Positions 11,121-42,930 of a stretch of DNA of 64,000 nt are shown here, piece after piece (within the stretch, counting starts at the first letter, position 1; every line of letters starts with the position of its first letter). The stretch comes from Pampinifervens florentissimum. Lineage in GTDB: Bacteria > Aquificota > Aquificia > Aquificales > Aquificaceae. Where the stretch lies: positions 1,168,491 to 1,232,490 of the forward strand of contig NZ_CP048795.1 of assembly GCF_011006175.1 (NCBI RefSeq). The letters run 5' to 3'. The position numbers and the translations under genes were made by a program. The notes below the pieces were generated by a model, which saw only the letters and a list, made by a program, of their open reading frames with translations, did not search any database and was not told where the DNA came from.

Positions 11121-11146
11121 AAAATGTCATGGGAGCAAATGCTCCC
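11121..11146 (-). terminator. Putative intrinsic terminator downstream of cas2
   Basis: GGGAGC-AAAT-GCTCCC hairpin (11131-11146). The minus strand continues ATGACATTTTGG. Confidence 0.35.
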
Positions 11147-11185
11147 TAAAAGCCTTATAGGGAGTATTATACCATAAAGAACAAT

Positions 11186-12916: not shown

Positions 12917-15081
12917 ACATTATCCGAGCTTAGCTCAGGGTCTTCTCTAAGTTCAGCCAATCCCTTCTCCTCGTCATAAGGAGCCTTCAGCCAGTGGAGG
13001 TTAAAGGTTTCAAGTCCTTTTATCCTTTCTAACATGTTATCCTTTGGCATATAAGCGGGGATGTTAAAGGTATAGTCCAAAATTTGGTTCAGAGCTTGGA
13101 TTTTTTCCTCCTTCTCTGTGCTATTTTTGTAATTCTGTATGAGTGCCTCTACTTTATCCTTGTAATATATGGGTATTACCGTGATTGAATGGATATCTCT
13201 AAAAAGTTCTTGGGCTTTTTTCCTGCTCTCTTGAGAGATAAGCCCTAAGGTATTCCAAATGTCTCTCACATATTCTTTCGCCTTTGAGTAATCTTCCATG
13301 TATTTAGGGTCTATTTTGGAGAGGGTTTCTCTTGAATATATCTCGGAAAGCAGGTTCCTTTTGTCTTGCTCTGTCCATATACCCTCCCGTAGTTTACCTT
13401 TAGAGTATTCATGTATGCTTTTTCTGTAGACACCGCCTATGCCAGAGCAGTCTTCTGTAAATATGTAAGCGTTAGGCTCTTCTACTTGCTTTTTTCCTTT
13501 TCTGTTTACCCTCCCAAGCCTTTGGAAAAGGCTGTCTGGTGTGGAATACTCCGTTATCAGAAAGTCCGCATCAAGGTCAAGAGAAACCTCTGCAAGCTGT
13601 GTGGTAATCCATATGCCACCATTCCCCTCTTTGAAAAAGCTCTCTATTTCCTTTTCCCTTTGTTTTCTTTGCAGTTGTATAAACCTTGAGTGCAACAGAT
13701 TAGGTTTTAGCCCTTCCTTCTTCAAAGCATCATAAAGGTCAACAGCCCTCCTTACTGTGTTTAGAATAACCAAAACCTTTCCTTCTTGAGACTTCTCTTT
13801 TATTAGCCTCAAGGCGTTTTCTGAAAGGACGCTATCCTTTATAAGTTTTAGGTTATGGCGAGGCTTTGGGTTGTCAAAAACCTTCTCTGTAAAATCTGGT
13901 AAGTCTTCTCGGATAAACTCTGGCACGGTTGCTGTCATAAGCATTACCTTAGCTCCCACCTTCTTTGCAAGTTTTATGCCTTCCACCAAAAAGCCAAGAG
14001 TATGAGGCTCAAAAAGTTGAAACTCATCCACCACCACTCTTGAATAGGAAAGGACTGCAAGGCTCTTTTCAAAGCCCTTGTAGGCAAAAACAAAAGGAAA
14101 TAGCTGGTCTGGAGTGCAAACAAGCAATGCCTTTGAAAAGTTTCTGGCATATTCGTAGTCCACAATAAGCCCAGTTAAGTGGTTTCTGTTTTCCTCTATA
14201 AGAAAGTTCAAGGCGGTAGAATGTAAAAGTCCAGCCTTTTCTCCAAAGAGGTCCTTAGCCCTCAGATATAAGGCATTTGCAGAAGTTCTAACTGGTATGG
14301 TAAAAAATCCTTTACCTTCTAAGTATATAAAGCCCGCTTCCGTCTTTCCGTATCCCGTAGGTGCACTAAGGAGTAAGTCTTTGTCTCTGTTCTTTAAGAC
14401 AAACTCCTGCAGGTCATTTAGTTCAAAGCCCTTTTTGTCTTTTATAACCTTTGCCACATCCCTTATCGGCTCAACCTCAAGGCTCTCTATATCCTTATTA
14501 CTGCTTGCATGGTCTATACGCAATAAAAGACCCTTTAAGAGTATATAGAAATTCCTCAAATTTTCCATAGGTTTTTCATGTTTTTTAGAAAGGTATATGA
14601 GAGCTTCGTATTCCAATCTTCTTAGCAATCTCTTGTGCCAACTCTGTATAGAAATACCAAATTCCTTAGAGGCAACTTCCTTAACCTTTTCCGCTACATC
14701 GTTGCCTGTTTCCACCCTATGATGGTGAATTATGGTAAGAGCACATATGTCTCTCAAAAACTCATCGTCCAAATTTTCCATGAAAGCTGGAGATAGTAGG
14801 TTATGTCGTATTTTTTCCACATATGAATCTGGATAGTTTTTGTTTTTTACCACTTCCCTTTGGAATTTACAATGAAGTTTTCCATAGTCATGATACTCGC
14901 AGGCAATCTCCAAAGCCTTCCAAAGATAGCTCCTCAAACCTACAGGACAGGCTTTTTCTATATCCTCTCCGTATAGGCTTCTAAGGAGTTTGAGATTTTC
15001 CAAGAGTTTGTCTGTATGCTCTCTTATAGAAGTGCCATCACTCTTCGCCCAAGCTATCTTCAGTTTCTGTGTTAGACTCAT
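12910..15081 (-). CDS. cas3: Cas3 with fused N-terminal HD nuclease and SF2 helicase
   Basis: HD motifs (EYHDYGKLH, IIHHHR, IDHASS), then Walker A LLSAPTGYGKTEAG and DEFQ (VVVDEFQLFEP). 723 aa. Confidence 0.9.
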   Translation of the reverse strand: MSLTQKLKIAWAKSDGTSIREHTDKLLENLKLLRSLYGEDIEKACPVGLRSYLWKALEIACEYHDYGKLHCKFQREVVKNKNYPDSYVEKIRHNLLSPAFMENLDDEFLRDICALTIIHHHRVETGNDVAEKVKEVASKEFGISIQSWHKRLLRRLEYEALIYLSKKHEKPMENLRNFYILLKGLLLRIDHASSNKDIESLEVEPIRDVAKVIKDKKGFELNDLQEFVLKNRDKDLLLSAPTGYGKTEAGFIYLEGKGFFTIPVRTSANALYLRAKDLFGEKAGLLHSTALNFLIEENRNHLTGLIVDYEYARNFSKALLVCTPDQLFPFVFAYKGFEKSLAVLSYSRVVVDEFQLFEPHTLGFLVEGIKLAKKVGAKVMLMTATVPEFIREDLPDFTEKVFDNPKPRHNLKLIKDSVLSENALRLIKEKSQEGKVLVILNTVRRAVDLYDALKKEGLKPNLLHSRFIQLQRKQREKEIESFFKEGNGGIWITTQLAEVSLDLDADFLITEYSTPDSLFQRLGRVNRKGKKQVEEPNAYIFTEDCSGIGGVYRKSIHEYSKGKLREGIWTEQDKRNLLSEIYSRETLSKIDPKYMEDYSKAKEYVRDIWNTLGLISQESRKKAQELFRDIHSITVIPIYYKDKVEALIQNYKNSTEKEEKIQALNQILDYTFNIPAYMPKDNMLERIKGLETFNLHWLKAPYDEEKGLAELREDPELSSDNVW

Positions 15082-15382
15082 CCTTTCCCTCCTTACCGTT
15101 CAAGCCAATAAGAAAAGCGTAGGCTATTCTTTCTAAGCCCTCCTCCTTTATAGCACTTAGAAACACACGCGGTATAGGCTTTTCCACTTCAAGGTATGCC
15201 CTTATTAGGTTTTGAGAAAAGTGGTCTATGTCCCTTCTTCTAACCGCCTCAAGCAAACGGTAAGAGAGGCTTTCTATCTTATTCTTTGCCCTATCTTCTC
15301 CAAGGCTTTCTTTGTAGCTTTGTGCTAACTTCTTACCCTCCACAAAAGCTGAGTTGATTTCTTTCTCCTTATTTGCTTGCAT
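15038..15382 (-). CDS. cas11: Predicted Cas11 small subunit, translated from an internal start inside cas8 (114 aa, in frame)
   Basis: On the minus strand, a perfect Shine-Dalgarno tttcaGGAGGTGttaaacATG precedes Met-355 of Cas8. The downstream 114 aa are helical and K/E-rich, as Cas11 proteins are. No separate cas11/csa5 gene exists in the locus. Confidence 0.45.
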   Translation of the reverse strand: MQANKEKEINSAFVEGKKLAQSYKESLGEDRAKNKIESLSYRLLEAVRRRDIDHFSQNLIRAYLEVEKPIPRVFLSAIKEEGLERIAYAFLIGLNGKEGKDESNTETEDSLGEE

Positions 15383-16444
15383 GTTTAACACCTCCTGAAA
15401 TTTTATTAGATATATAAGACTTTTATCCAAACCACTCTTTTGTTTAGAGCTTCTTTCACTTTTAAAAGCAGCCTCAGTTCCATATTTAATAAGCCTTACA
15501 TCATCATTAATTTTCTCCTTACCTTCATAATTACCTGCAAAAATATAACCTAACATTATCTTGTATAGCATATGATATAGGCTTTTACCATAGTAGACAT
15601 ACTTGAGGAATATATCAAAGAGAGGGTTAAGACTCTTCGGATATTCTTCTATGTATTCTCTGAGGGCGTGTGCCTGTATTTGGCTTAAGCTGAAGGTGTA
15701 GATATTGCTTTGTGCTTTACTTACAGTTTGTATCTCCACAACATAGATGTTTTCCAAAGACCAGCCAGCCTTATACTTCTCAATACTCTTTACCACTTCA
15801 ATAAGACTTTCTTTTATTATGTCCGCAGATATCCACTTGCGGGTCTCCAAGGCATTATTTATACCTATCATAGATCTTATATCATCCGGAAGATAAACAA
15901 AAATATACCTTCTTTCAATATCTGTAAAGCCAAAACAAGCAAAGTAAAGCAATGCCTCACATTCTTTACATAAAAACATAGTATTTACACCGTTGTAGAA
16001 AAGGTTTGGAAAAGTGTTTGGACTTGCAGAAAGCGGTGTGAAGTTAATCGCATCAAAAGTCTTGTAGAAATTTTCCTTTTTGTAAGAGTTTCTTTCCTTA
16101 CAGAAAAAGCATTTAGGGAAGTTATTTGAAGTATTAACAGAAAGTAATTTTTGAAAGAATTTTTCTATTTCTTTTTTATTATTCAATGATATCTTTGCTT
16201 TAGGATTAGGATTAGTTAGAGGTGAGTTGTTGTAAAAAACTTTAAGCCTTGAAATGTTAGCAGGGTATTTTAGAAGATAGTCCGCATACAGTTCTGGAAG
16301 TCTTTCCCATAGGTCTTGTGGAACTTCCAGGACACGCTCTTTGAAGTAAGGTAGTGGGTCAATTTTTGCATGATTTAAAACCTTAGCAAAACCTACCGCA
16401 CTGGAAGCCATAAGCCAGTTGTCTATCCGAAACCTTATAGCCAT
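15038..16444 (-). CDS. cas8: Cas8 large subunit (Cas8a/Cas8b-like) of the type I effector complex
   Basis: 468 aa, positioned between cas5 and cas3. Internal zinc-finger-like CFFCKERN...(37 aa)...CKECEALLYFAC. Helical C-terminal ~110 aa (see internal cas11 feature). Confidence 0.7.
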   Translation of the reverse strand: MAIRFRIDNWLMASSAVGFAKVLNHAKIDPLPYFKERVLEVPQDLWERLPELYADYLLKYPANISRLKVFYNNSPLTNPNPKAKISLNNKKEIEKFFQKLLSVNTSNNFPKCFFCKERNSYKKENFYKTFDAINFTPLSASPNTFPNLFYNGVNTMFLCKECEALLYFACFGFTDIERRYIFVYLPDDIRSMIGINNALETRKWISADIIKESLIEVVKSIEKYKAGWSLENIYVVEIQTVSKAQSNIYTFSLSQIQAHALREYIEEYPKSLNPLFDIFLKYVYYGKSLYHMLYKIMLGYIFAGNYEGKEKINDDVRLIKYGTEAAFKSERSSKQKSGLDKSLIYLIKFQEVLNMQANKEKEINSAFVEGKKLAQSYKESLGEDRAKNKIESLSYRLLEAVRRRDIDHFSQNLIRAYLEVEKPIPRVFLSAIKEEGLERIAYAFLIGLNGKEGKDESNTETEDSLGEE

Positions 16445-17112
16445 ACTGGAAGCCCTCCTTCTTTTTCCATCAGGATTTCACCCTCCTCTACTACAGTTCC
16501 CTTTTGGAGGTAGTAGACTTCCATCCATTCGTGCTCTCTTAAACTGCTGTTCCTTTTTAGAAAGGTTGGCAAAAGATAAAATATACCAGATGGGTATGTA
16601 GATAGGTTAATATACCTATCCTTTGGTAAAAAGGCGGACCATTCAAGTTTAAGCTCTTCCACCTTTCTCTCCTCAAGCTCTACAAAATCTATCCTTCGTA
16701 TCTTTACAGCATACTCTCCACCAGAGAGGTAAAGATAAGTCTGCGGCTTTTTCAAAGCCTCTGCAAACTCTCTCAAAAGCTCATATTCGCCGTATAGATG
16801 GACTATTAGCTCAAGCTGGTAAAGTATGGGGACTTCAATGGGAACAACTTCTAACTTCTTTTTATCCACATTATACTTCCTAAAACGCACATAATCTCTA
16901 AAAAGGGCTTGGTACCTGCCTTGTATGGATATTTGAAACTCTTCGCCTTGCCATTTTCTTCCTATGGCGGTATACAAAAGACCTATTATGGTAGAATAGG
17001 GTGGAAGCGGATAGGTCTCTATACCCTTTAAGGAAAAAGGGGCCTTGAAGATGCCAGTAGGCGTAAAGAGTTCAAACCTTAGGGCTTTCATCTTAGAGCA
17101 CTCCGTAAACAC
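16435..17112 (-). CDS. cas5: Cas5 (type I-A/I-B)
   Basis: 225 aa. N-terminal MKALRFELFTPTGIFKAPFSLKGIETYPLPPYSTIIGLL is typical of Cas5. Confidence 0.8.
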   Translation of the reverse strand: MFTECSKMKALRFELFTPTGIFKAPFSLKGIETYPLPPYSTIIGLLYTAIGRKWQGEEFQISIQGRYQALFRDYVRFRKYNVDKKKLEVVPIEVPILYQLELIVHLYGEYELLREFAEALKKPQTYLYLSGGEYAVKIRRIDFVELEERKVEELKLEWSAFLPKDRYINLSTYPSGIFYLLPTFLKRNSSLREHEWMEVYYLQKGTVVEEGEILMEKEGGLPVWL

Positions 17113-18079
17113 TCTTAACCTTTTGCCTTAGGCTCTCAAAGACCTCTGCTACACCTTTTGCACTTAGCTGGGTTCTTATATCCTCTTCGTTATGAAAGTG
17201 TCCAGAGGCAACTCCCACTAAAACCTCCTCACCTTCTGGGACAAGGTCTATGGCATCTCTTAGGGCGTTTATGTCAAGAATTAGCTTTCCTTCCTTTTCC
17301 ACAGCCTTTACCGCATCCATAAAAAAGGGATTTTTCACGCTAAAGACACCACCAACTACAAAAACTGGGGAGAGGTTTTCCCATCTGCCTCTTATCTGCC
17401 TGCTAAGGGTCTTTATAACCTCAAGAAGTTCCACCACTCTTTTTGCCTTTGCCTGAGAGTCTATGACCTCTTTTATTTCTCCCTCCTCTGTTTCCCACAC
17501 ACCCACACGGTCAAGGTCTACAGTAAGGGTGTAGATGTAGTGAGAGGTGTGTTGTTCGGAGTTTACTATCGCTTGGTCGCCTCTATCCTCTATGTGCCTT
17601 ATGTATCTGTTGTAGGCATCTATGTTGTTCATAAAGTCCATATCGGATTTGAAGGGACTTACGGAAAACATATAGCTGGTTTTGACTACGCTTACCCTCT
17701 TTACCGCATCACCCTTTGAGAGCTTTAGGGACTTCTTTTTACCATCCTCTTCCTTAGCAGGCTTTGTAAAAAGCCCACCAAAAAGGTCAAACTCTTCGTA
17801 GTCCTTTACCAAGTCCTCGCCAAACTTATCCACATCAAGAGTATCCTTAGAAGTGTGTCTTGCAATATACTCCTTTAGCTTTTCATCCAACAGCCTCCAG
17901 CCAAACCTTTCCCTTCCATGCCTTCTTATCTCATACTTTAAAGCCTTGTCAGAGGCATAGGTTAGCTGTGTGTTATCCGCAAGGGTAATCTTCTTAAGCA
18001 CAGACACATTACCTATACTCTCTCCATAGTTGAGAGAGCTTGCCCTGTGGGTTATTACCGTAAGGGTTAATCCAGCCAT
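17093..18079 (-). CDS. cas7: Cas7 backbone subunit (Csa2/Csh2, COG1857 family)
   Basis: 328 aa. THRASSLNYGESIGN motif and glycine-rich thumb are characteristic of Csa2-type Cas7. Confidence 0.85.
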   Translation of the reverse strand: MAGLTLTVITHRASSLNYGESIGNVSVLKKITLADNTQLTYASDKALKYEIRRHGRERFGWRLLDEKLKEYIARHTSKDTLDVDKFGEDLVKDYEEFDLFGGLFTKPAKEEDGKKKSLKLSKGDAVKRVSVVKTSYMFSVSPFKSDMDFMNNIDAYNRYIRHIEDRGDQAIVNSEQHTSHYIYTLTVDLDRVGVWETEEGEIKEVIDSQAKAKRVVELLEVIKTLSRQIRGRWENLSPVFVVGGVFSVKNPFFMDAVKAVEKEGKLILDINALRDAIDLVPEGEEVLVGVASGHFHNEEDIRTQLSAKGVAEVFESLRQKVKSVYGVL

Positions 18080-18158
18080 TTTTGACCTCCCTTAGTTGTT
18101 CTACTTACTTATGTTAACAGACACTTTTTACAGTTTCTGACAGTTTAAAATTTTCTCT

Positions 18159-18857
18159 ATGCGTTTTTTGGTGAAAATGGAAAGTCAAAGGGGAGAGAAG
18201 ATACCCATAGACTACAGACGCAGGCTCATATCTTTGATGAAGAGGGTTTTTGGAGTTAGGGAGTTTCTTGAAAATCCAGTAAGACCCTACACCTTTGCGG
18301 TATACCTCGGAAAGGGTGTGGTCTTTGAGGAAGAAACCATAAGCGGTGTAAAGTTTATAAACCTACGCATCTCCACAGGAGACCCAGTTTATGGGCTAAG
18401 GCTCTACAATGGGTTATCTTCTCTCAAGGGTAAAACCCACAAGATAGGAGATGCGGAGTTTGTTATAAAGGAGATTAAGTTAGAAAAGGAGGGAGATTGG
18501 TCAAAGGGCAGTTTCAAAAGCCTGTCTCCTGTGGTAGTGGAAAAGCCGGTATTTTCACAAGACAGCCCAAAAGCAAGATATCTAATTCCTATGGAAGAAG
18601 GCTTTGAAGATGCTCTTCTTGAGAACATACTTAGACGCTTTAGGGTTATAAAGGGCTATGAGCCAAAGATAGAAGAGTTTTCCTTTAGCTTTAAATACTT
18701 CAAGGAAGAGTTCATAAAGCACTATGGTGGGCACATTAGGGCTTTTCTTGGAAGGTTTCGTATAAACACAGATAACCCAGAAGTTTTGAGATTTGTCTAC
18801 CAATATGGGCTTGGTCTAAGGACGGGTCAAGGCTTTGGATACCTTGAGGTGGACTAA
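18159..18857 (+). CDS. cas6: Cas6 crRNA endoribonuclease
   Basis: 232 aa. C-terminal glycine-rich loop GLGLRTGQGFGYLE. Divergently transcribed from cas7 across an 80-bp gap. Confidence 0.8.
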   Translation: MRFLVKMESQRGEKIPIDYRRRLISLMKRVFGVREFLENPVRPYTFAVYLGKGVVFEEETISGVKFINLRISTGDPVYGLRLYNGLSSLKGKTHKIGDAEFVIKEIKLEKEGDWSKGSFKSLSPVVVEKPVFSQDSPKARYLIPMEEGFEDALLENILRRFRVIKGYEPKIEEFSFSFKYFKEEFIKHYGGHIRAFLGRFRINTDNPEVLRFVYQYGLGLRTGQGFGYLEVD

Positions 18858-25948: not shown

Positions 25949-27475
25949 ATGTTCTGTCGTGTAAAAAGTGGTGGGATTCTGGGAATAGAGGGTTTTGAAG
26001 TAGATGTAGAGGTAGATATTGCCAACGGATTGCCACAGTTTTCTATCGTAGGTCTTGGAGACAAAGCCATAAACGAAGCACGGGAAAGAGTAAGGTCTGC
26101 ACTCAAAAACATTGGCTTTCAACTACCTGTAAAAAGGATAACTGTAAACCTCTCACCCTCACATCTCAAAAAGCAAGGAACACACTATGACCTACCTATA
26201 GCCTTGGGTATCCTCAAGCTCTCAACAGGTATAGATTTTCCCGAAAACCATGTGGTTCTTGGTGAGCTGTCTCTTGATGGTAAGATAAACCCAGTTAAGG
26301 GTGTCCTGCCGATAGTTCTCTCTCTAAGAGATCTTGGCTACAAAAGGTTTATTGTTCCAGAAGGCAATGCAAAGGAGGCCGGTCTTGTCAAAGATGTAGA
26401 AGTTTATGGTTTTGAGAGCCTAAGGGATGTGTTGGATTTTTTCAGTGGGAGCCTTTCAAAAAAGCCAGTGGAGGTGAACTTAGAGGAGGTCTTTGAACAA
26501 AACCTTTCCTTTGATGTGGACTTTAGCGAGGTTTATGGTCAGCATCAGGCAAAAAGGGCTATGGAAATATCCGCAGCAGGATTCCATCCTATTCTCTTAG
26601 TGGGTCCGCCTGGTGCTGGCAAAAGCATGCTTGCCAAAAGGCTCATTACCATTATGCCACCCTTGACCTTTGAGGAAGCAGTGGAGATAACGCGTATATA
26701 CAGCGTTGCAGGTCTCTTGAGCGAGGACAAACCCCTTATAACAAAAAGACCCTTCAGAAACCCTCTAACAAACGCCTCAGATTCTGCTCTTGTAGGTGGT
26801 GGCACAGTGCCACAGCCCGGTGAAATATCCTTAGCACACAGGGGAGTGCTTTTCCTTGATGAGTTTCCAGAATTCAGCAGAAAGGCTATAGAGTCTCTAA
26901 GACAGCCCTTGGAAGATGGAAAGGTCACCGTGTCAAGGGTTGGTGGTAGGATAAGCTTTCCTGCGGAGTTTTTGCTGGTAGTGGCTATGAACCCCTGTGC
27001 CTGTGGCAACTACGGAAACCCATACAAAGCCTGTGTATGCACTCCCATGCAGTTAAAAGCATACCAGTCAAGGATATCTGGTCCCATAATGGATAGGATA
27101 GACCTAAAGGTTTGGGTATATCCAGTGGAAAAAGAAGACCTGCTAAAGATGTCCTCAGGCGAAAGCTCAGCACAGATTAGACAAAGGGTTATGAGAGCTG
27201 TTGAAATTCAAAGGGAGCGTTTTAAAAACAGTCCAACAAAATACAATTCACGCATGACAAACGACCAAGTTAAGAAATACTGCGAGATGACCCAAGAAGC
27301 TAAATCTCTACTTCAAAGTGCCATAGATAGACTAAACCTAACTGGCAGAGGCTATATGAAGGCACTGAAGGTGGCGAGAACCATAGCAGACCTTGAAGGA
27401 GAAGAAAAAATAGCCAGCCATCACATAGCAGAAGCTCTCCAGTATAGGATAAACGAAAAAGCACCCACTCTATGA
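25949..27475 (+). CDS. comM: Mg-chelatase-like AAA+ ATPase YifB/ComM
   Basis: N-terminal Lon-like domain, Walker A GPPGAGKSMLAKRL, sensor and arginine-finger regions. 508 aa. Confidence 0.9.
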   Translation: MFCRVKSGGILGIEGFEVDVEVDIANGLPQFSIVGLGDKAINEARERVRSALKNIGFQLPVKRITVNLSPSHLKKQGTHYDLPIALGILKLSTGIDFPENHVVLGELSLDGKINPVKGVLPIVLSLRDLGYKRFIVPEGNAKEAGLVKDVEVYGFESLRDVLDFFSGSLSKKPVEVNLEEVFEQNLSFDVDFSEVYGQHQAKRAMEISAAGFHPILLVGPPGAGKSMLAKRLITIMPPLTFEEAVEITRIYSVAGLLSEDKPLITKRPFRNPLTNASDSALVGGGTVPQPGEISLAHRGVLFLDEFPEFSRKAIESLRQPLEDGKVTVSRVGGRISFPAEFLLVVAMNPCACGNYGNPYKACVCTPMQLKAYQSRISGPIMDRIDLKVWVYPVEKEDLLKMSSGESSAQIRQRVMRAVEIQRERFKNSPTKYNSRMTNDQVKKYCEMTQEAKSLLQSAIDRLNLTGRGYMKALKVARTIADLEGEEKIASHHIAEALQYRINEKAPTL

Positions 27476-28113
27476 TATAAATCATAAAAGAATTTCACAC
27501 CCTGTTTCTAAGTATGGCTTTTTCCATAACTTTTTTAGCCCGAATTTCACAGGGAATTTCACACCCTAAGGCGGAATTTCACATCTGATACAAATCATAT
27601 TTCTAAGTATGGCTTTTTCCGTGTATTTTTAGAGGCGAATTTCACAGGTTTTTCGGTTTTTCACAGGAAAATTTCACACCCTGTGAAATTCTTTAGGGTA
27701 TGTTTCTAAATATGGCTTTTTCCAACATTTTCTAACATACACAAAAACGGAAAAATTACGGAAAAATCCATACTTAGAATGCGGACCTGTGAAATTGTGA
27801 AATTCGTCTGAAGTGCTTGATTCTCAAGGGTTTGCTACAATCGTGAAATCAAGGAATATCAAGCATTTGAAAGGGGGTGTGAAATTCTGTTTCCGCAAGT
27901 GCTTGATTCTCAAGGTTTTCCCTAAGGGGGTGTGAAATTCGCGGGGGTCTATTATTATTATTTCTAGATAGAAATAAAATAAAAGAAATAAAGAAGAATA
28001 GGAATTTCACATCCAAGCCCGTCAGTAAGAACCCGCTTGGTCTTGTTAAATAGATGGAAAAAGCCTACCACTTATCTCAGCGGGTTTCTAAACATAAAAG
28101 GTGAAAAGGGACG
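27476..28113. repeat. Non-coding repeat cluster with an AT-rich tract. Candidates are oriC-like, iteron or operator array; no ORF.
   Basis: 12 or more GAATTTCACA/TGTGAAATTC motifs in both orientations. Four copies of the 37-bp composite AATTTCACA-N5-TTCTAAGTATGGCTTTTTCC, one inverted at 27752-27790. Two copies of a 40-bp unit (27811-27829/27874-27888 and 27897-27915/27926-27940). 27947-28001 is AT-rich. Confidence 0.7.
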
Positions 28114-29133
28114 CTACGAGATGTTTCCATTAGGCACTTCTATCTGAAGGAGCCTTTCATATCCTAAGTCCTTGAGAAGTTGATAGTCCTTTTTTATGTC
28201 CCTTCCTGCTCTTGTGAGATAGCCACCCACCATCATGGCGTTAGTCATAAGAACAGCCATACCGTGAAAGTCTCTCAAGTTTTGCTCTCTTCCTCCACAA
28301 AGTCTTAGCTCTGCCTTTGGGTTTGTAAACCTAAACATGGCTATTATTTTTAGAGCTTCAAGGGGGCTCACACCCGGAGCAGTTTCCATAGGCGTTCCTT
28401 CTATAGGCATAAGGAAGTTAAGCGGTATAGAATCCACCTCCAACTCTCTGTATGTAAGTGCAAGGTCAACCCTATCTTCGTCAGACTCTCCCATGCCAAA
28501 AATTCCACCACAACAAGTGGAAAGCCCCACGGACTTAATCCTTTTTATGGTCTCATACCTTTCTCTCCATGTATGTGTGCTTACTATCTTAGGAAAAAAG
28601 TTCTCCGATGCCTCAAGGTTATGGTTTACCCTTTTGACTCCTGCGGATTTTAGTCTCTTGAGGGATTCCTCATCAAGGGTTCCGGCAGAGACACAGACAT
28701 TTATGGGAAGCCCTTCCTTCCTAATCTCCTCTACACCTTCACATATTCTTTCCACCTCTTCCTTAGTTGCGGATTTGCCACTAAGGACGATGCAGTATCT
28801 ATTTGCACCAAACTCCACACCTCTATATGCACCTTCCAATATTTCATCCTTAGGGACAAGGTTGTATATGTTTATGGGCGTTTTGTAAAACTTGGACTGG
28901 GCACAGAACTTGCAATCTTCTGAACAGGCACCACTTTTTGCGTTTATTATAGAGCAGAACTCTACTTTGTCTGGTGGATGAAAGTGGTTTTTTACCTTTT
29001 GTGCCAGATAGACCATAAGGGCAATGTATTGGTCTGGTATTTGCAAAAGTTTTAGTGCGGTTTCCTTATCTATAGGCTCATAGGCTATAGCCTTTTCTGA
29101 AACTTCAAAGAGAAAGCTCTCCACTCTGTCCAT
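28114..29133 (-). CDS. bioB: Biotin synthase
   Basis: CSEDCKFCAQS radical-SAM motif, BioB-specific residues (IFGMGESDEDR). 339 aa. Confidence 0.9.
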   Translation of the reverse strand: MDRVESFLFEVSEKAIAYEPIDKETALKLLQIPDQYIALMVYLAQKVKNHFHPPDKVEFCSIINAKSGACSEDCKFCAQSKFYKTPINIYNLVPKDEILEGAYRGVEFGANRYCIVLSGKSATKEEVERICEGVEEIRKEGLPINVCVSAGTLDEESLKRLKSAGVKRVNHNLEASENFFPKIVSTHTWRERYETIKRIKSVGLSTCCGGIFGMGESDEDRVDLALTYRELEVDSIPLNFLMPIEGTPMETAPGVSPLEALKIIAMFRFTNPKAELRLCGGREQNLRDFHGMAVLMTNAMMVGGYLTRAGRDIKKDYQLLKDLGYERLLQIEVPNGNIS

Positions 29134-29422: not shown

Positions 29423-29785
29423 GTGATGAGAGTCAGATTTAGAGTGGCGGTCTACAGCAAAGAAGGTAAAAGACTTGGTAGGGAAGACTTTATAGCGTTT
29501 CGTGAGCCTCTTTATGTGGGCATAAGGTATGTGGTAGAGTTTAAATACCTTGAGGCAACCAAGTGGCTCATGCTTGCAAAGGATTGTCAAGAGAAGTATC
29601 TGCTTTTGGCATTGCTTAACTTCTCTCTTGGTCAAGAAACGCAGGCTCGTGAGTTTTTGCAAGAGGCATTAAAGCATGAAAGGGCTACTGATTACCTTTT
29701 TGTGATAGAAAAGCCAGAAGAGGGTCTGAAGGTGGCTATTGAAAGGATAGAAGCCTCCTTGCCTGATTTTCTATTATCCTTGTAA
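29423..29785 (+). CDS. Hypothetical 120-aa helical protein
   Basis: ORF with protein-like composition. Convergent with the VWA gene and overlaps its 3' end by 50 nt. Confidence 0.3.
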   Translation: MMRVRFRVAVYSKEGKRLGREDFIAFREPLYVGIRYVVEFKYLEATKWLMLAKDCQEKYLLLALLNFSLGQETQAREFLQEALKHERATDYLFVIEKPEEGLKVAIERIEASLPDFLLSL

Positions 29786-31580
29786 AGGCTGTAGGAAGTT
29801 CGCTTATGCTCTTTATCCTTATGGCACTTTTCTCAAAGTAATAGTCTGTGTAATTTCTTTCTGTGCCAACTCCTATGCCTATGATTGGTATTCTTGACTT
29901 TATCTGTGCTATAAGACTCTTTAGCTCTTGACCTTTTAGACCTCTTGTAGGCTCTCCGTCAGAGAAAACTACAATGCATCCCCTAATGTGATTTTTCAAG
30001 CAGAAGGTCTGAAGGTCTTCATAAGAATATATAAGGGCTTTTTCAAGGTTTGTCCCACCGCCCAGCAGGTTAAAAAGCTCTATTATTTTCCACTTTACAG
30101 CCTTGTAGTCCTCTGAAAACGCCTTTAGTCTAAAAACCCTGTCTGAAAACACATCTATGGAGAAGGACATTTTAAGGCTTTCTATAACCTCTGAAAAGAG
30201 CAAAAGAGCCTTTATGGCGTTTTGTATTTTGTCCTCTCTTTTCATAGAAGTGGAGATATCTATGAGGAGCTTAAAGGCTAACTCTTTTCTTACTGGTATG
30301 TGCCTTCTCATGTATATTCTTCCTCTTCCAAGAGGTGCTTCCACGCTTAGGCTTTTAGTATCAATCCTTCTACCATAGAAGTGTTTTCCGGTCCAGCCTT
30401 CCTCTTCTTGTGGCATGAGTTTGACCAGTTTTCTCTTTAAAGCGTCTATGTGTGGCAAAATATCAGAGAGCATTCTTTTGTAGACCATAAAGTCTTCTTT
30501 TCCAAGACCGTAAGCCTTCTCATACAGTCTATCCTCTTCTGTTTTTTCTCTTTTGCTTCTTCCAAAGCCAGACTGAGAAGAGGAAGAAGACTGCTCTTCC
30601 CATCCCTTTATAATAAAGCTCAAAAAGCCTCTGTGTTCTATATCAACCTCAAGGGTTTTTGGCAAAAAGTGTCTTATAAACTCCACATCCCTCTCTATCA
30701 AGTTTATGTAAGACATCTGCTTTAGGTAGTCTCGCATCCAGTCTGGGACTGCCTTTAAACTTTTGAGTATTTCTTTTCTGTCCGCTTCTGATATATCCAC
30801 CGCCCTTTTGTCCTTGTTTTGCACTATTATCTCTTGAAGATGTTCTGGTAATTTCTTTAGAAGGTCTGTCATTATCCTGCCTCTGTGGGCATCCACTCTG
30901 GTCTTTCCTCTTGCCTCTTCCAAAAGCAGGTCAACATAGTTTATGTCTTGTGCCTTTTCTATATGGCTCATGTATCTTCCAAAGAGGTCTTCCATAATTA
31001 TGTCATAGGCATCCCTGCTTTTTGCATTTAGATACTCTTGGAGGAATTTCTGTGTATCTTTTTGATAGTTCCCTTCACCAAGCCAGTTTTCCAGAAGAGA
31101 AAGAGCAAAAAGGTGATGCGGATAGTAGGTTTCTAAGTTATTCAATATGTTTTTGTAATGCTTTTTTACAGTTTGCAAGCTATCTGGACGGCTTTTTATA
31201 AGCCTTTCGTCTGTTTTTATAGACTCCAAAACCGCATAAAGCACTAAAAAGGACGTAGGCGTAAAGCCAAATTTATAGAATTCCCTTTGACCAAGCCTCC
31301 AAAGGTAAAGGTCAGTGCTAAAAAGATACTCTATTTCATGCCTTATGGTGTTTATGGCTTCCTCTTCTGGTTTGTTAGAAACTTCCTGAAGATAGAAGGC
31401 AATGCCAGAGGGTCGCTTTACTGGTTCTGGCACATCTTCTACTTCCCCCTTTGCCCACATTTCGGTGAGAGGTAGAAACTTAGGGTCATAGCCAGCTCCC
31501 CAGCCCTCGTAGCTTGCCTGAACCTCTATATCATATTCGTCAGATAGGAGCTTCTCTATTACCTTCCAACGCTCTTTCAC
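29736..31580 (-). CDS. Large VWA-domain protein with MIDAS motif (NorD/CobT/CbbO-like architecture), coupled to encapsulin
   Basis: 614 aa. C-terminal VWA: DISTSM (DxSxS), GGGTNLEKAL, VVFSDGEPT. Mid-protein Ser-rich linker EEQSSSSSQSGFG. The GTG start overlaps the encapsulin stop (GTGA). Confidence 0.7.
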   Translation of the reverse strand: MKERWKVIEKLLSDEYDIEVQASYEGWGAGYDPKFLPLTEMWAKGEVEDVPEPVKRPSGIAFYLQEVSNKPEEEAINTIRHEIEYLFSTDLYLWRLGQREFYKFGFTPTSFLVLYAVLESIKTDERLIKSRPDSLQTVKKHYKNILNNLETYYPHHLFALSLLENWLGEGNYQKDTQKFLQEYLNAKSRDAYDIIMEDLFGRYMSHIEKAQDINYVDLLLEEARGKTRVDAHRGRIMTDLLKKLPEHLQEIIVQNKDKRAVDISEADRKEILKSLKAVPDWMRDYLKQMSYINLIERDVEFIRHFLPKTLEVDIEHRGFLSFIIKGWEEQSSSSSQSGFGRSKREKTEEDRLYEKAYGLGKEDFMVYKRMLSDILPHIDALKRKLVKLMPQEEEGWTGKHFYGRRIDTKSLSVEAPLGRGRIYMRRHIPVRKELAFKLLIDISTSMKREDKIQNAIKALLLFSEVIESLKMSFSIDVFSDRVFRLKAFSEDYKAVKWKIIELFNLLGGGTNLEKALIYSYEDLQTFCLKNHIRGCIVVFSDGEPTRGLKGQELKSLIAQIKSRIPIIGIGVGTERNYTDYYFEKSAIRIKSISELPTAFTRIIENQARRLLSFQ

Positions 31581-32425
31581 TTTTCGCCTATTACCATTAT
31601 GGCACCGGGTCTCTTTATACGCGGTGCTATAACTTCCATAACCCTAAAGTGGTGCACCATGTTGGTAGATTCCACGTAGGCAAGGCTAAAGTCAAGCCCA
31701 AGGACAAGGTCCATATTCTGCGGTCCTACAGACAGGAGAATAGCCTTTCCTTCTGGGACTATAGGTGTATGGTAGACATCGGAAACCAGCTTTTTAATCT
31801 GCTCAATCTCAAGAAGTCCTGTGTTGTGATAGAGCCTATTGAGCTTAAAGTAGTCCCTTGGGTTTAGAAGAAGATAGTATGGTCCATAAAAGCCCTTTTC
31901 TGAGAGCTTTGATATACCAAGGGATACATCGTTAAAGGCGTTGCCAAGCACATCCCAGTCGCTCATGGACATGCTCTGCCTTCCTTCCACCGTAAGAAAG
32001 CCCTCTATTTCCATTTTTGGATTGCCGTGAATTATGAGGGTATCCTCCGCCACTGCAGTGGCAAAGGCTGCAGCAGATGCCTGAGAGGTATCAATTGGCA
32101 AGTTAAATTGTCTGAAGTATTCAAGGTCTCTCCAAGTTATGGAGAAAGGCTTGAATATGGTGGGAAGGGTTATGTATTTTCTTCTTCCTGTTCTCACAGG
32201 CTCGCAGGCTTCGCTCTCTTCTCCCGGTCTTACTTCACATACTCCCGGTTCTACACCAAGGTAAACATCGTAGGCTATTACCTGATGCCCAACGCCTATT
32301 GGTCCTATAACTGGCATAAACCTTCTGCATACAAGGGTCTTTTTAGCCACATCAATAACCGCACTTTCTAATTGCTCCCATTCTTCAAAGGTAAGTGGTG
32401 ATTGCTCTCTTCCTAAAAAGTCCAT
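31577..32425 (-). CDS. Family-1 encapsulin nanocompartment shell protein (HK97 fold)
   Basis: 282 aa, collinear with T. maritima encapsulin. MDFLGREQSPLTFEEWEQL aligns to MEFLKRSFAPLTEKQWQEI, GPYYLLLNPRDYFKL to GPYTLVINTDRWINFL, and the C-terminal LVLGLDFSLAYVESTNMVHHFRV block also aligns. Strong RBS AGGAGGTG. Confidence 0.85.
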   Translation of the reverse strand: MDFLGREQSPLTFEEWEQLESAVIDVAKKTLVCRRFMPVIGPIGVGHQVIAYDVYLGVEPGVCEVRPGEESEACEPVRTGRRKYITLPTIFKPFSITWRDLEYFRQFNLPIDTSQASAAAFATAVAEDTLIIHGNPKMEIEGFLTVEGRQSMSMSDWDVLGNAFNDVSLGISKLSEKGFYGPYYLLLNPRDYFKLNRLYHNTGLLEIEQIKKLVSDVYHTPIVPEGKAILLSVGPQNMDLVLGLDFSLAYVESTNMVHHFRVMEVIAPRIKRPGAIMVIGEK

Positions 32426-32441: not shown

Positions 32442-33500
32442 TTAAATTATACGCCAATATTCTTCAAAGGCTATCCATGTTTTTGGGATTATTTCCTTTA
32501 GGTTGTCCCATCTTTTCATGTGTTTTTTCCTCTTTTCTGATGCCCTCCATAGGGTGCTACCAAAGACCTCTTGAGCTTCCTCTTCAAACTCTTCTGGAGA
32601 ATCCTCACATAATGCTTTACCTGCCATATCCCCCGATATGACCGCGTTGGCTATTCCACCGCCAGTTATGGGATGACAAAAGCCACCCGCATCCCCCACA
32701 AGCAGAACCCTCTTTCTTACCAAAGGCAGTAGCCCATCCGCAGGTATCCATCCACCCGTTCTTTTTATTATTTGTTTTTCTACTATACCCTCTGCAACCA
32801 CCTCTTCTACGAACCTTTTGAGGCTTTCCATCACATTAACTCCATAATCTGGGTCAACCCCCACTCCCACGTTGGCGAGCCTTCCCTTTGGAAAGACCCA
32901 GCCGTAGCCTCCTGGGATGTAGTCTCTAAAGTATATAAGAAGGTCTTCAAGCTCTTTTGTCAGTTTCATTGTTATTTGTGCAGTGGTGAGGAATGTCTGG
33001 GTTTTTTCACCAGTGAGCCTTGCCACCTTTGACCTTGGTCCGTCCGCACCCACTACAAAGTCCGCCTTTACTGGAAACTTTTCTCTCGTGTCAATCTCTT
33101 CAAGCCATGCAAAACCATCTTCAAAGCCCAAAAATTGTGTTCTAAGCATATATACCGCACCCTGCTCCTGTGCCAGCTTGGCTATCTGAGCGTCAAAGAC
33201 CTCTCTGTTTAATACAAAGCCCTCCGACCACATACTTACCACCTCTCCCCAAGGTGTAAAATGAACCATATTCTTTACCCTCTGAGCTATAGCCTCCTGT
33301 GGAAAGAACTCCTTAAACTGATGGTATAGCTGAATAGGGACAAACTCCGCACATTGCACAGGCTTTCCTATACTTCTTTTTATGTCAACTACCAAAACCC
33401 TTTTACCAGCCTTTGCAAGCCTATAGGCACAGGAAGAACCTGCAGGACCTCCTCCAACTATTAAGACATCAAACTTTTTCATGCCCTTTATTGAAAACAC
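32442..33500 (-). CDS. FAD-dependent oxidoreductase, geranylgeranyl reductase family
   Basis: VLIVGGGPAGSSCAYRLAKAG dinucleotide fold, GDAGGF motif. 352 aa. Confidence 0.75.
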   Translation of the reverse strand: MFSIKGMKKFDVLIVGGGPAGSSCAYRLAKAGKRVLVVDIKRSIGKPVQCAEFVPIQLYHQFKEFFPQEAIAQRVKNMVHFTPWGEVVSMWSEGFVLNREVFDAQIAKLAQEQGAVYMLRTQFLGFEDGFAWLEEIDTREKFPVKADFVVGADGPRSKVARLTGEKTQTFLTTAQITMKLTKELEDLLIYFRDYIPGGYGWVFPKGRLANVGVGVDPDYGVNVMESLKRFVEEVVAEGIVEKQIIKRTGGWIPADGLLPLVRKRVLLVGDAGGFCHPITGGGIANAVISGDMAGKALCEDSPEEFEEEAQEVFGSTLWRASEKRKKHMKRWDNLKEIIPKTWIAFEEYWRII

Positions 33501-33750
33501 TTGAAGGCTTAAAGCCTATACTATACCTTTCCTCCACATACATCTCTATGCCAGTCTTAGGGTTCTTTATAAACCTTCCGCTCAGCCTCCTTATTTTAAA
33601 AATGCCAAATCCTCTAAGTTCAAGCCTACCCTTTTCAAGAACAAGGTTAACTATCTCTTCAAAAAAACTGTCCACAAAGAGCTTAGCGTCCGCCCTGTTT
33701 TTTATATTAAACTCCTTCCTAAGGCTTTCTATTAGGTCTGTTTTTTTCAT
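33469..33750 (-). CDS. hup: HU/IHF-family nucleoid-associated DNA-binding protein
   Basis: GFGIFKIRR…KNPKTGIEM…FKPS arm motif. Start taken at MKKTDLIESL. Confidence 0.8.
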   Translation of the reverse strand: MKKTDLIESLRKEFNIKNRADAKLFVDSFFEEIVNLVLEKGRLELRGFGIFKIRRLSGRFIKNPKTGIEMYVEERYSIGFKPSSVFNKGHEKV

Positions 33751-34177
33751 CCTTTTCCTCCACATAGAAGGTTCTTACCCGTGAATTTTTACTAACCGCA
33801 ACCGCCCTATCTTCTTTTCTGTAGTAAACTATCTCATCCGCCTCAACAAAATTCTGCCCTTCTTCCACCTTTGCCTTTCCTATCAGGGTTATAACCTCAT
33901 CCTTAAGGTCGTAGACCATTTTGTTGGCGGAGGCTTTCCTATTTCCTTCCGTGTATCTCGCATTTCCCTCTGCTTCTATGAGCTTTGCTTTTTTGCTCTC
34001 GTCCAAGTGTATAACTACCCTGTTTGCAGTAAGAAGTGCATTTCCTCTTGTGATTCTCACATTTCCCGAATACACCACCTTATCCTTCTCATAGGTGAGA
34101 TTGTCCGCTTCGCCTACTATGGGCTGTGCAAACATAAGCGTAGGTATTAAGACCAAAAGAATTACAACCTTTCTCAT
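33719..34177 (-). CDS. lptA: LPS transport periplasmic protein LptA (OstA-N fold)
   Basis: Signal peptide, beta-jellyroll repeat pattern. Operon position after lptC/kdsC. Confidence 0.7.
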   Translation of the reverse strand: MRKVVILLVLIPTLMFAQPIVGEADNLTYEKDKVVYSGNVRITRGNALLTANRVVIHLDESKKAKLIEAEGNARYTEGNRKASANKMVYDLKDEVITLIGKAKVEEGQNFVEADEIVYYRKEDRAVAVSKNSRVRTFYVEEKDEKNRPNRKP

Positions 34178-36441: not shown

Positions 36442-39400
36442 ATGGAGCTCACAAGGCGAAGTTTTCTAAAAGTTGCAGGCGTTTCTGCGGGTGCTACCCT
36501 TACTGGTGGGCTCGGTTTTGACCTAAAGCCTGCCATGGCGAGGGTTAGAGACCTTAAGATTTCCAACGCAAAGGCTGTAAAAAGCACATGTCCCTATTGT
36601 TCTGTTTCCTGCGGGGTAATAATCTACAGCCTTACCGATGGTGCTATGAACGTAAAGCCAAGGGTCATACATGTGGAGGGCAACCCAGATGACCCAGTTA
36701 ACAGAGGAACATTGTGTCCAAAAGGTGCGACACTTAGAGATTTTATAAATTCACCTCAGCGTCTTAAAAAGCCCCTTTATAGACCACCTGGGGCTAGAGA
36801 TTGGCAGGAGATAAGCTGGGAAGAAGCTCTAGACAGGATAGCTCGTCTAATAAAGCATACGAGGGACAGAACTTTTATAGAAAAGGATGAACAAGGAAGA
36901 ACCGTCAACAGATGTGAAAGCATAGCTTGGGTTGAAGGTAGCACCATAGCTAACGAAGAGGGCTACCTGTGGGTAAAGATGGGGGTTGCCCTCGGGCTTG
37001 TTGCACGGGAAACCCAGGCGCGAATATGACACGCACCAACGGTGGCCAGTTTGGCCCCAAGATTTGGAAGAGGTGCGATGACCAATGGATGGAACGACAT
37101 AAAGAACGCAGACCTAATACTGGTTATGGGAGGAAATCCTGCGGAGAACCATCCCTGTGGCTTCAAATGGGCGATAAAAGCGCGTCAAGAAAGGGGAGCC
37201 AAGATAATTTGCATAGACCCAAGGTTCAACAGAACCGCTGCGGTTTCTGATATATTCCTGCAGATAAGACCTGGGTCTGACATAGCCTTTATGGGTGGTC
37301 TTATAAACTATGTGCTTCAGAACAAGAAATACAACGAAGAGTATGTAAAGCACTTTACAAACGCTGCATACATAGTAAAAGACACTTACAGCTTTGACCC
37401 ACAGACAGGTCTATTCTCGGGTTATGACCCAGAGAAAAGAAAGTATGACCAGTCCCTTTGGGGATACGAGCTTGACGAGAAGGGTATGGTAAAGAAGGAT
37501 ATGACCCTTCAGCATCCAAGATGTGTCTTTCAGCTTATGAAGGAGTTCTACTCAAGGTATACGCCAGAAGTAGTAGAAAAGCTTACAGGCATCCCAAAGG
37601 ACAAGTTCCTTGAGGTGGCAAAGCTCATAGCGGAAACCTCTGCACCAGACAAGTCAATGACACACCTCTACGCTCTCGGATGGACACATCACTCCACAGG
37701 AACACAGCTCATAGGTTCTATGGCTATACTTCAGCTCCTTCTTGGAAACATAGGGGTTCCTGGCGGTGGTGTAAACGCTCTAAGAGGTCATTCAAATGTG
37801 CAGGGCATGACCGACCTAGCAGGAGAAGGAAGATTTCTACCAGGATATCTAAAACCACCAATGGCAAATCAGCAGACTCTTAGGGACCACATAGAAGCAA
37901 ACACTCCAAAGGCTGTGGACACTTCAATGAATTACTGGTCTAACTATGGTAAATTCTATGTAAGCCTTCTCAAAGCATGGTTCGGAGACGCTGCAACCCC
38001 AGAGAACGAGTTCGCATACCACTATCTGCCAAAGCTGGAAAAGGTCATTTCCATGGACGAGATACTAGACAGGATGTATAGGGGTAAGATGGAAGGCTTT
38101 GTTTCCGTGGGTATGAACATACTTGCAAGCAATCCAAACGTCAAGAAGATAGCGGAAGGACTTGGAAAGCTAAAGTGGATGGTGGTTATCGATGTCTTTG
38201 AGACGGAGATGGCAGGCTTTTGGAAGTATGTGGATGACCCATCAAAGGTTCAAACAGAGGTATTCCTCTTACCATCCGCTCTGTTTGCGGAGAAAGAGGG
38301 GTCTTATACCAACAGTGGAAGGGTTATAAAGTGGAAATACAAGGCGGTAGACCCACCAGGGGATGCAAAGGACGAGCTATGGATAGCGGGTCAGCTGTGG
38401 ATGAGGCTCAAAAACCTTTACAAGAAGGAAGGTGGTAAGTTCCCTGACCCTATACTAAACCTCACATGGAACTTCCAAAACCCCTACTATCCAACTGCCG
38501 AAGAGGTCTTGAGAGAAATGAACGGCTACGCCCTTGCGGACCTTACAGATGACAAGGGTAATGTGGTGGTTAAAAAGGGTGAAAGGCTACCCGGTTTTGG
38601 TGTGCTAAGGGATGATGGGACAACAGCCTGTGGCATGTGGCTCTACTCTGGTGTTTTCCCTCAATCGGGCAACAGGGCAAAGTCTACAGACCTCTCCGAC
38701 CCATCAGGTTTGGGAATCTATCCGGGCTACGGCTACAGCTGGCCAGCCAACAGAAGGATACTCTACAACAGGGCATCCGCAGACCCAAGCGGTAAGCCTT
38801 GGAGCGAAAAGAAGAAATACATCTGGTGGAACGAGGCGGAAGGTAAATGGGTTGGCTACGACGTGCCAGACATAAAACCAGACCTCACACCCGATTATGG
38901 ACCCTTCATAATGCTTCCAGAAGGAAGAGGTAGGCTCTTCTGTGCACCTCTTGTGGATGGACCCTTCCCAGAACACTACGAACCCTTTGAGTCTCCAGTA
39001 GAGAACATCTTGCATCCAAAGACACCTCATAACCCAGTGGTTAAGATATACAAGTCAGACCTTGACCTACTTGGAAAACCCGATGAATTTCCATATGTGG
39101 CGACCACCTATAGGGTCGTTGAACACTTCCACTATTGGACAAAACATATCTACGGCACCTCTGTGCTTGTTCCCAACATGTTTATTGAGATACCAGAGGA
39201 GCTTGCAAAGGAATTGGGTGTAAAGGAGGGTGACAAGGTAAGGGTTGTTACCGCAAGAGGTTCTGCGGAAGGTTATGTCCTTCCCACTAAGAGGATAAAG
39301 CCTCTCACAATAAACGGTAAAAAGGTATATACGGTAGGTATCCCTATACACTGGGGTAATGAGGGTGTAGTTAAAGGTGCTCTTGCCAACATGATAACGC

Positions 39401-39477
39401 CCTTTGTGTGGGACCCTAACTCTCAAACTCCAGAGTTCAAGGGTTTCCTTTGCAGGGTTGAAAAGGTAAAAGCATAA
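36442..39477 (+). CDS. fdnG: Formate dehydrogenase catalytic (alpha) subunit, Tat-exported selenoprotein with in-frame UGA = Sec at 37027-37029
   Basis: RRSFLK twin-arginine signal. N-terminal 4Cys Fe-S motif (CPYCSVSCG). Both ORF-track pieces share one frame and join as …ARI-U-HAPTVASLAPRFGRGAMTNGWNDIKNADL, the canonical FdnG/FdhF selenocysteine motif. Mo-bisPGD domains follow. Confidence 0.9.
37030..37080 (+). promoter_or_regulatory. Predicted bacterial SECIS element directly 3' of the UGA
   Basis: Position immediately after the Sec codon. Potential stem-loop GGCCA-GTT-TGGCC, extendable. Not folded computationally. Confidence 0.4.
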
Positions 39478-42820: not shown

Positions 42821-42914
42821 GGAGAGTTTGGCGCGCTGGTGCGGTCCCGGGACTTCAAATCCCGTGAGGGGTCCTGTTAGGGGTCCCTGGAGGGTTCGAT
42901 TCCCTCACTCTCCC
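42820..42914 (+). tRNA. selC: tRNA-Sec (selC), anticodon UCA
   Basis: 95 nt. 8-bp acceptor stem GGGAGAGT/ACTCTCCC plus discriminator G. Anticodon arm GGACTTCAAATCC is identical to E. coli selC. Long variable arm, TΨC GGTTCGATTCC. Confidence 0.85.
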
Positions 42915-42930
42915 GGTTTATAATACTGAT

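Follow-up and report, generated by a model that had tools for sequence, protein, structure and literature searches.

The gap between the convergent genes comM/yifB and bioB of Pampinifervens florentissimum (positions 27476-28113 of the 64,000-nucleotide stretch analysed here, from here: the window) is bounded by the stop codons of both genes and holds a dense array of nine-nucleotide boxes beside a long AT-rich tract. With moderate confidence we interpret this gap as a chromosomal replication origin (oriC) with the lineage-specific box AATTYCACA. Its sequence anatomy, its conservation in related Aquificaceae, the phasing of its boxes and the low stability of its duplex are observed features; from these we infer that DnaA would be the binder, that the AT-rich tract would unwind and that replication would start at this site. 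As an origin, the element is unexpected in its variant box, in the twelve perfect copies of that box, in the reversed polarity of the boxes relative to the putative unwinding element and in its dyad layout.

A preliminary description of this DNA had noted a non-coding island packed with motif copies, and the island is real. No open reading frame (ORF) longer than 55 amino acids lies in the gap, and the 9-mer AATTTCACA occurs there in 12 exact copies within 520 bp (27491-28011), seven on the + and five on the - strand, compared to a single copy (20772) in the remaining 63 kb of the window. In shuffled sequences 0.76 copies are expected per 64 kb, and the largest count in any shuffle was 3. Allowing Y at box position 5 adds one further copy outside the gap (58626), and box variants with one mismatch are not enriched there. 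The earlier count of at least 12 motif copies applies to this 9-mer but not to the 10-mer GAATTTCACA, of which there are ten, a leading G being present on 10 of the 12 boxes. Bacterial origins are expected to contain at least three initiator boxes at a mean spacing below 100 bp; here, 12 boxes share 520 bp.

The boxes are arranged in two opposed arms. The left arm (27491-27678, + strand) consists of repeated units of ~95 bp and carries six exact boxes, at 27491, 27543, 27555, 27575, 27638 and 27670, as well as the degenerate box TTTTTCACA at 27657. The right arm (27682-27939, - strand) is built from units of ~86 bp, is conserved in the six aligned genomes and carries five exact boxes, at 27682, 27788, 27796, 27878 and 27931, among them the overlapping pair of exact boxes TGTGAAATTGTGAAATT. 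Both arms meet in the inverted pair AATTTCACA-CCC-TGTGAAATT at 27670-27690. This junction had been taken for a perfect palindrome at 27669-27690, but a non-symmetric CCC separates the two 9-bp halves of its inverted repeat. The boxes on the + strand, that is the six of the left arm plus one at 28003, are helically phased, with R(10.5 bp) = 0.83 and p = 0.004 against random placement.

The right arm ends in a module that resembles an origin unwinding region. Its last box (27931-27939, - strand; TGTGAAATT on the + strand) is followed by the G/C-rich cluster CGCGGGGGT at 27940-27948, which separates it from an AT tract of 53 bp (27949-28001) with 85-90% A+T, T-rich in its left and A-rich in its right half on the + strand. 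The tract had been noted before, with a start at 27947 that has to be moved to 27949. It is the candidate DNA-unwinding element (DUE): the least stable 50-bp duplex of the window lies within it, at -48.2 kcal/mol compared to a mean of -66.2 (standard deviation 3.7), i.e. ~4.9 standard deviations off, and an adjacent AT-rich element of low stability is among the features by which an oriC is recognised. Triplets resembling DnaA-trios occupy 27949-27966 on the - strand and read 3'-GAT AAT AAT AAT AAA GAT-5' (+ strand CTA TTA TTA TTA TTT CTA). DnaA-trios are defined as more than three repeats of 3'-[G/A]A[T/A]-5' behind a GC cluster (PMC7561715), and all six triplets behind the GC cluster fit this formula, while at least four triplets beside a box are expected of a basal unwinding system (BUS). 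Beyond the tract follows the final motif copy of the preliminary description, a box at 28003-28011 on the + strand that is inverted relative to the one at 27931-27939, so that both AATT ends face the tract. The segment comprising the tract and both flanking boxes (27920-28020) forms an imperfect dyad, with a single-strand fold of z = -3.9.

Two further repeat families accompany the boxes, and all three are restricted to the gap within the window. The 20-nt unit TTCTAAGTATGGCTTTTTCC is present at 27506-27525, 27601-27620 and 27704-27723 (+ strand) and at 27760-27779 (- strand), i.e. four matches with at most one mismatch compared to none expected; it recurs in the relatives and is a candidate site for a second protein. 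Four copies with one inverted had been reported before as parts of a 37-bp composite repeat. The copies stand, but the composite is loose, as only two of the four have a box close by at a fixed distance (6 and 8 nt). The dyad unit AAGTGCTTGATTCTCAAGG, with the core CTTGA-N3-TCAAG, is found exactly at 27811-27829 and 27897-27915 (+ strand) and nowhere else in the window, a related inverted copy lies at 27845-27869, and its symmetry makes it a candidate site of a dimeric protein. In addition, GGGGGTGTGAAATTC is present twice, at 27871 and 27924. Two of the four matches of the window to the IHF consensus WATCAANNNNTTR lie in the gap, at 27857-27869 (+ strand; TATCAAGCATTTG) and at 27896-27908 (- strand); since their count across the window does not exceed chance, these sites are kept as a lead only. 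A gene of the HU/IHF family (PF00216) is encoded at 33469-33765 (- strand), 5.4 kb from the element, and the same arrangement exists in the related locus L315.

In the mechanism that we propose, the initiator DnaA would bind the twelve perfect AATTYCACA boxes and, with two opposed arms and boxes mostly on one face of the helix, the bound DnaA may oligomerise and wrap or bend the DNA. Further proteins may assist at the CTTGA-N3-TCAAG and TTCTAAGTATGGCTTTTTCC units, perhaps a bending protein of the HU/IHF type. Starting from the box at 27931-27939 and reaching across the G/C-rich clamp, the DnaA oligomer would engage the strand that carries the triplets, the AT tract at 27949-28001 would open, and the helicase would be loaded there.

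Conservation of the element in related Aquificaceae

ComM and the genes around it assign the window to a Hydrogenobacter-like lineage of hot-spring Aquificaceae. Comparison with related Aquificae, proposed in the preliminary description, revealed the element beside comM with invariant boxes in each of seven further assemblies, at ComM identities of 71-97%. These are L169 (92% nucleotide identity), L003 (Hydrogenobacter sp. Uz 6-8; ComM at 84%), L148 and L314 (both with ComM at 84%), L002 (81%), L315 (73%) and L322 (71%). L314 is the complete 1.72-Mb chromosome CP076324.1, in which the element is located at ~262.7-263.2 kb. The gene comM is the constant neighbour in all relatives (synteny: L001, L002, L003, L148, L169, L314, L315, L322). 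The element travels with the 3' end of this gene because its right neighbour is not bioB in L002 and L322, where a + strand ORF (8090-8452) and a different radical-SAM gene (5847-6668), respectively, take that place. A BioB match (P0252) nonetheless lists a longest contig of 37,368 bp, equal in length to that of L002. The element sits at a synteny break, and rearrangements appear to end there. Between the comM stop codon and the first box, L314 has ~160 bp extra (7528-7690, corresponding to L148 1445-1600, reversed) that the window does not have.

In an alignment of six genomes, from which L322 was left out, the mean column identity was 65%, and the boxes, in the form AATTTCACA or AATTCCACA, stayed perfect as the spacers drifted. 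Invariant columns are all nine of the AT-proximal box, those of the CTTG...CAAGG dyad and the seven with which the AT tract begins, CTATTAT. L322 carries TGTGGAATT at the position of the AT-proximal box and CTATATT at the start of the tract. The G/C-rich cluster is represented in the relatives by 8-9 G/C-rich nucleotides, and hence the + strand beside the AT tract reads TGTGRAATT, 8-9 G/C-rich bases and CTAT in every version. A logo from 78 box instances yielded [G>A]AATT[T>C]CACA, followed by ~3 C-rich positions.

The order of these modules varies. In the window, L169, L003 and L322 it is + arm, - arm, GC cluster, AT tract and + box (layout A), in L148/L314 and L002 it is one or two boxes, - arm, GC cluster, AT tract and + arm (layout B), and L315 has a compact version of 308 bp with nearly all boxes in - orientation. 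The persistence of the modules in a reshuffled order argues that they are functional and have not simply been inherited as neutral sequence. An inverted box past the AT tract is also present in L169 and L322; the corresponding box of L003 and L315 overlaps one on the - strand.

Adjacent boxes of one orientation tend to be 8-13, 20-23, 31-33, 52-54, 62-64, 81-84 or 106-107 bp apart. For the window, L003 and L314 it is the + arms that are phased at 10.5 bp, and for L315 and L322 the - arms (R 0.83-0.93, p 0.001-0.004; orthologous arms are not independent observations); the window, L003, L314 and L002 show no phasing at this period in their - arms. L322 has runs of four and six boxes spaced by 9-13 bp, as in DnaA oligomerisation regions.

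One box cluster exists per 64-kb window and per relative locus examined. The element was absent from the comM and bioB neighbourhoods of Aquifex aeolicus, of two Thermocrinis species and of two Hydrogenobacter sp. assemblies. Scans of metagenome and viral contigs for three boxes returned, among the matches listed, only L148 and L169 as related sequences, the rest being unrelated tandem repeats and arrays of clustered regularly interspaced short palindromic repeats (CRISPR).

Putative DnaA recognition and alternative readings

A likeness of the 9-mer to DnaA boxes had been suggested from the start, and it holds for one half of the box. The six bases at its 3' end, T[C/T]CACA (positions 4-9), equal the conserved half of the DnaA box TTATCCACA, whereas the first three are AAT instead of TTA. 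In the E. coli complex of DnaA domain IV with its box (1J1V), R399, P423, D433, H434, T435 and H439 reportedly make the base-specific contacts. Aligned to this domain, A. aeolicus DnaA keeps R399, D433, H434, T435 and H439 and has I in place of P423. The DnaA of the complete genome carrying the element (P0361, on the contig of 1,722,082 bp), identical in domain IV to P0100, keeps D433, H434 and T435 and has K, S and Y at the positions of R399, P423 and H439. If the reported contacts are right, this clade has altered the 5' half of the box as well as those residues that are expected to recognise it, and the substitutions K/S/Y could explain the changed half. A. aeolicus DnaA has been reported to have no linker between domains III and IV.

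A more specific version of the origin reading is that a clade-specific DnaA reads AATTYCACA from boxes whose reversed polarity brackets the unwinding element symmetrically, unlike in E. coli and B. subtilis; we regard this as possible, though doubtful. If true, the reversed bracketing geometry would mean that the strands are opened by another path once the duplex is bound, possibly with symmetric loading of the helicase.

Several observations weigh against an origin at this site. AATTYCACA has two mismatches (positions 1 and 2) to TTWTNCACA, including the usually conserved T2, and only TTTTTCACA at 27657 matches TTWTNCACA with at most one mismatch. Canonical TTWTCCACA sites exist elsewhere in the window, five of them between 11458 and 17834. 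The polarity differs as well. In every version of the element the AATT end faces the AT tract, while R1 in the E. coli oriC has its TGTG/CACA end towards the DUE. Likewise, the BUS of B. subtilis reads 5'-TTATCCACA-AATCCACA-GGCC-CTACTATTACTTCTACTA (PMC10721633, Supplementary Fig. 1), and against its 5'-TTATCCACA..GGCC-CTACTA stands 5'-TGTGAAATTC-GCGGGGGT-CTATTA here, with the proximal box in the opposite sense. In B. subtilis the CACA ends of boxes 6 and 7 face the trios, and flipping both boxes inactivates incC. The register of the triplets decays in distant relatives, to CTA TTA TCT... in L314 and CTA TAT TTA... in L322. A regression of GC and AT skew at third codon positions (GC3, AT3) over 71 genes with a moving breakpoint found no significant switch in the window, with |t| ≤2.0 everywhere; AT3 is weakly extreme at 27-28 kb, which we do not count as evidence, and raw GC skew follows gene orientation in the window. 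Over a span of 64 kb, GC and AT skew are uninformative. Genes converge on the site, and the next 8 kb to the right would be transcribed head-on to a departing fork. No dnaA, dnaN or parS is present in the 64-kb window, and the linkage to dnaA, dnaN or gid, a non-obligatory indicator of oriC, is seen neither in the window nor in the loci of the clade. Finally, no AATTYCACA was found upstream of dnaA in the H. thermophilus group, the only dnaA loci examined.

With regard to the five TTWTCCACA sites, all are on the + strand (11458, 14813, 16862, 17295 and 17826) within 6.4 kb, three are exact copies of TTATCCACA, and they fall inside or at the ends of cas genes on the - strand. This local excess of the classical DnaA box may be due to chance or be codon-driven.

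The distance to dnaA can be seen in the context of the family. In the H. thermophilus group dnaA is not beside dnaN and is flanked by short gaps without a box cluster, which makes an origin remote from dnaA plausible in the Aquificaceae. A tblastn search found no dnaA in the element loci of this clade. The placement of dnaA relative to comM in CP076324.1 by accession numbers was tried and dropped, QWK12455, the DnaA of this clade, and QWK13326 not being in simple positional order.

That the element is an assembly site for another protein, centromere-like in segregation, nucleoid-organising or silencing, with an incidental AT tract, is in our view unlikely. This reading draws on the first three box positions, which depart from every described DnaA box, on the string TTTCAC that the box shares with the parS half-site and on the two additional conserved motif families, which imply additional binders; phased arrays of ~11 bp also exist in plasmid centromeres such as parC of R1. 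Yet no parS-like 16-mer is present in the gap or the window: the 16-bp palindrome TGTTNCACGTGAAACA is missing from the gap, and its best match in the window, at 36999, has two mismatches and is not above chance. Moreover, comM is the sole constant neighbour and no parAB, parMR or repressor gene travels with the element, and two inverted arms with a GC cluster and an AT tract correspond to no known centromere layout.

We consider it quite improbable that the boxes serve to regulate or titrate DnaA while oriC lies elsewhere, comparable to datA and DARS of E. coli or the DnaA-box clusters of B. subtilis. The sites datA and DARS2 are box clusters with IHF sites, and the dense cluster here has two IHF-consensus matches in its middle; dnaA and dnaN are not adjacent, and the boxes are not oriented as in a canonical unwinding module. 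However, the invariant GC cluster, the triplets, the AT tract, the lowest duplex stability and the bracketing dyad are features of an origin that, to our knowledge, do not occur in titration sites, and no better origin candidate was found in ~250 kb of Aquificaceae DNA including dnaA loci.

The preliminary description had also offered a plasmid-like iteron array, a dense operator array or small-RNA genes. That the gap holds the origin, active or relict, of a plasmid or virus that has integrated, or else a nest of miniature mobile elements, is very improbable. The arms of the element are indeed composite direct repeats of 86-95 bp, and the differing order of the arms between layouts A and B shows recombination within the element. 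On the other side, no rep, integrase or transposase gene adjoins any of the eight versions, nothing similar was found among 72,556 plasmids and 50,697 phage records, the viral-contig scans gave chance matches only, and the element has kept a stable place beside a housekeeping gene across the whole range of ComM identities. The iteron proposal is likewise unsupported: iterons are typically direct repeats of 17-22 bp beside a rep gene, and the gap has 9-mers in two orientations and no rep gene next to it. An operator or promoter role is not expected because the flanking genes converge on the gap, which leaves no promoter to regulate.

Small RNAs or a degenerate CRISPR-like array we deem next to negligible: although box-like strings occur in CRISPR repeats of the family (GTTTAAATTCCACACGG... 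in L311, AACTCCACA in the window array at 10469-10629) and the distance to a type I-B cas operon is only 9 kb, the boxes have both orientations and irregular spacing, which does not fit the 28-37-bp direct repeats, regular spacing and unique spacers of a CRISPR array, Tandem Repeats Finder finds nothing in the element, no Rfam family reaches threshold, and promoter- and terminator-like sites are not above shuffles. Since no other part of the CRISPR repeat is present in the element, the likeness appears to be a coincidence.

As to the CRISPR loci themselves, the mini array of the window (10469-10629) consists of three copies of GTTTCAACTCCACACGGTGGATTAGCAAC, a repeat that includes the one-mismatch box copy AACTCCACA, and lies ~0.6 kb from the type I-B cas operon (11186-18857). 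This operon encodes Cas3, Cas8b1 and others on the - strand and a gene with a Cas6 domain (18159-18857) on the + strand. In Hydrogenobacter sp. (L311 15190-16773, L312 and L313) dnaA is located ~4 kb from cas6 and a long CRISPR array. The repeat of this array, GTTTAAATTCCACACGGTACATTAACAAC, includes an exact AATTCCACA, which is the reason why many CRISPR arrays turn up when public collections are scanned for the box.

Weighing these points, we retain the origin reading that had been raised among others for this gap. It gains from the conservation in seven relatives, the invariant module of box, GC cluster and CTATTAT, the phasing and the least stable duplex, and loses from the box mismatches, the reversed polarity towards the AT tract and the missing dnaA and dnaN nearby. 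In Aquificae, weak skew and the lack of linkage between dnaA and the origin leave origins poorly defined, and an AATTYCACA box would escape standard origin finders. A structured candidate with a lineage-specific box would thus allow origins to be annotated in the Aquificaceae, and a known origin would enable estimates of growth rate from metagenome coverage. The family includes Aquifex, the source of the DnaA reference crystal structures, and a changed box paired with changed base-contacting residues would constitute a directly testable specificity code.

Flanking genes and local context

The left neighbour comM/yifB (25949-27475, + strand) encodes a Mg-chelatase-like AAA+ ATPase (Pfam Mg_chelatase, ChlI and Mg_chelatase_C), and the right neighbour bioB (28114-29133, - strand) has the Pfam domains Radical_SAM and BATS; both point with their 3' ends towards the element. 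A terminator-like hairpin with a T run at 28058-28083 (- strand), just downstream of bioB, is probably the bioB terminator and lies outside the element; the stretch 28012-28113 is missing from L003. Whether the gap is the longest intergenic stretch of the window, as had been stated, is debatable, since crude gene calls leave a gap of ~890 bp (10296-11185) that holds the mini CRISPR array.

Further to the right, the encapsulin shell gene (Linocin_M18) at 31577-32425 adjoins a gene for a 614-aa protein with a VWA domain (29736-31580), and in L003, L314 and L315 both genes keep their synteny with the element. An in-frame TGA at 37027-37029 interrupts the formate dehydrogenase alpha gene (36442-39477): the ORF before it (36442-37029) and the one from 37042 share one frame, and the match to TIGR01553 begins at profile position 201. 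A tRNA-Sec gene (42820-42915) is located 3.3 kb downstream, and the TGA is probably a selenocysteine codon and not a stop.

Comparison with known origins

Iteron plasmid origins resemble the element in having repeated protein-binding sites beside an AT-rich region; they differ from it in that the 9-mers here are in two orientations, without a rep gene and without plasmid similarity. Archaeal origins share the geometry, with inverted initiator-type sites, the origin recognition boxes (ORB), bracketing an AT-rich DUE, as the imperfect dyad does here. The likeness is geometric only: the genome is bacterial and has DnaA, its box bears no relation to ORB, and no Orc1/Cdc6 gene was seen in the window.

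Among bacteria, A. aeolicus and Thermotoga maritima are comparable as deep-branching thermophiles whose origins have been studied in vitro, A. aeolicus belonging to the same family. T. maritima represents a lineage that has evolved its own box, a 12-mer. The A. aeolicus DnaA differs from that of this clade in keeping R399 and H439, where K and Y are found here. For the A. aeolicus oriC, consecutive boxes from its genome have been used (PMC4288177), and it has been drawn as a long origin (PMC10325909).

The BUS of B. subtilis agrees with the element in the order of its parts, namely box, G/C-rich cluster, at least four triplets on the strand that meets the box with its 3' end, and AT-rich tract. 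It has a tandem pair of proximal boxes (DnaA-box#6/#7) instead of one and a spacer of 4 instead of 9 nt, and unlike in B. subtilis, the triplet register of the element is lost in its most distant relatives.

The E. coli oriC sequence used for comparison is 100% identical to at least 5,015 genomes. Compared to it, the box is AATTYCACA and not TTATCCACA, 12 of 12 copies are perfect without graded affinities, and GATC sites are missing. The arms converge here, with CACA ends inward, whereas R1 and R4 of E. coli point outward, and a second box stands on the far side of the AT tract. Nevertheless, both have two opposed arrays of 9-mer boxes with a spacing near one helical turn in places, an AT-rich unwinding element at the flank, with a G/C-rich spacer between it and the nearest box, possible sites of bending proteins between the boxes, and a location that is not adjacent to dnaA. 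The reversed polarity and the dyad layout of the element would provide a test of how general the unwinding model of box, GC cluster and trios is.

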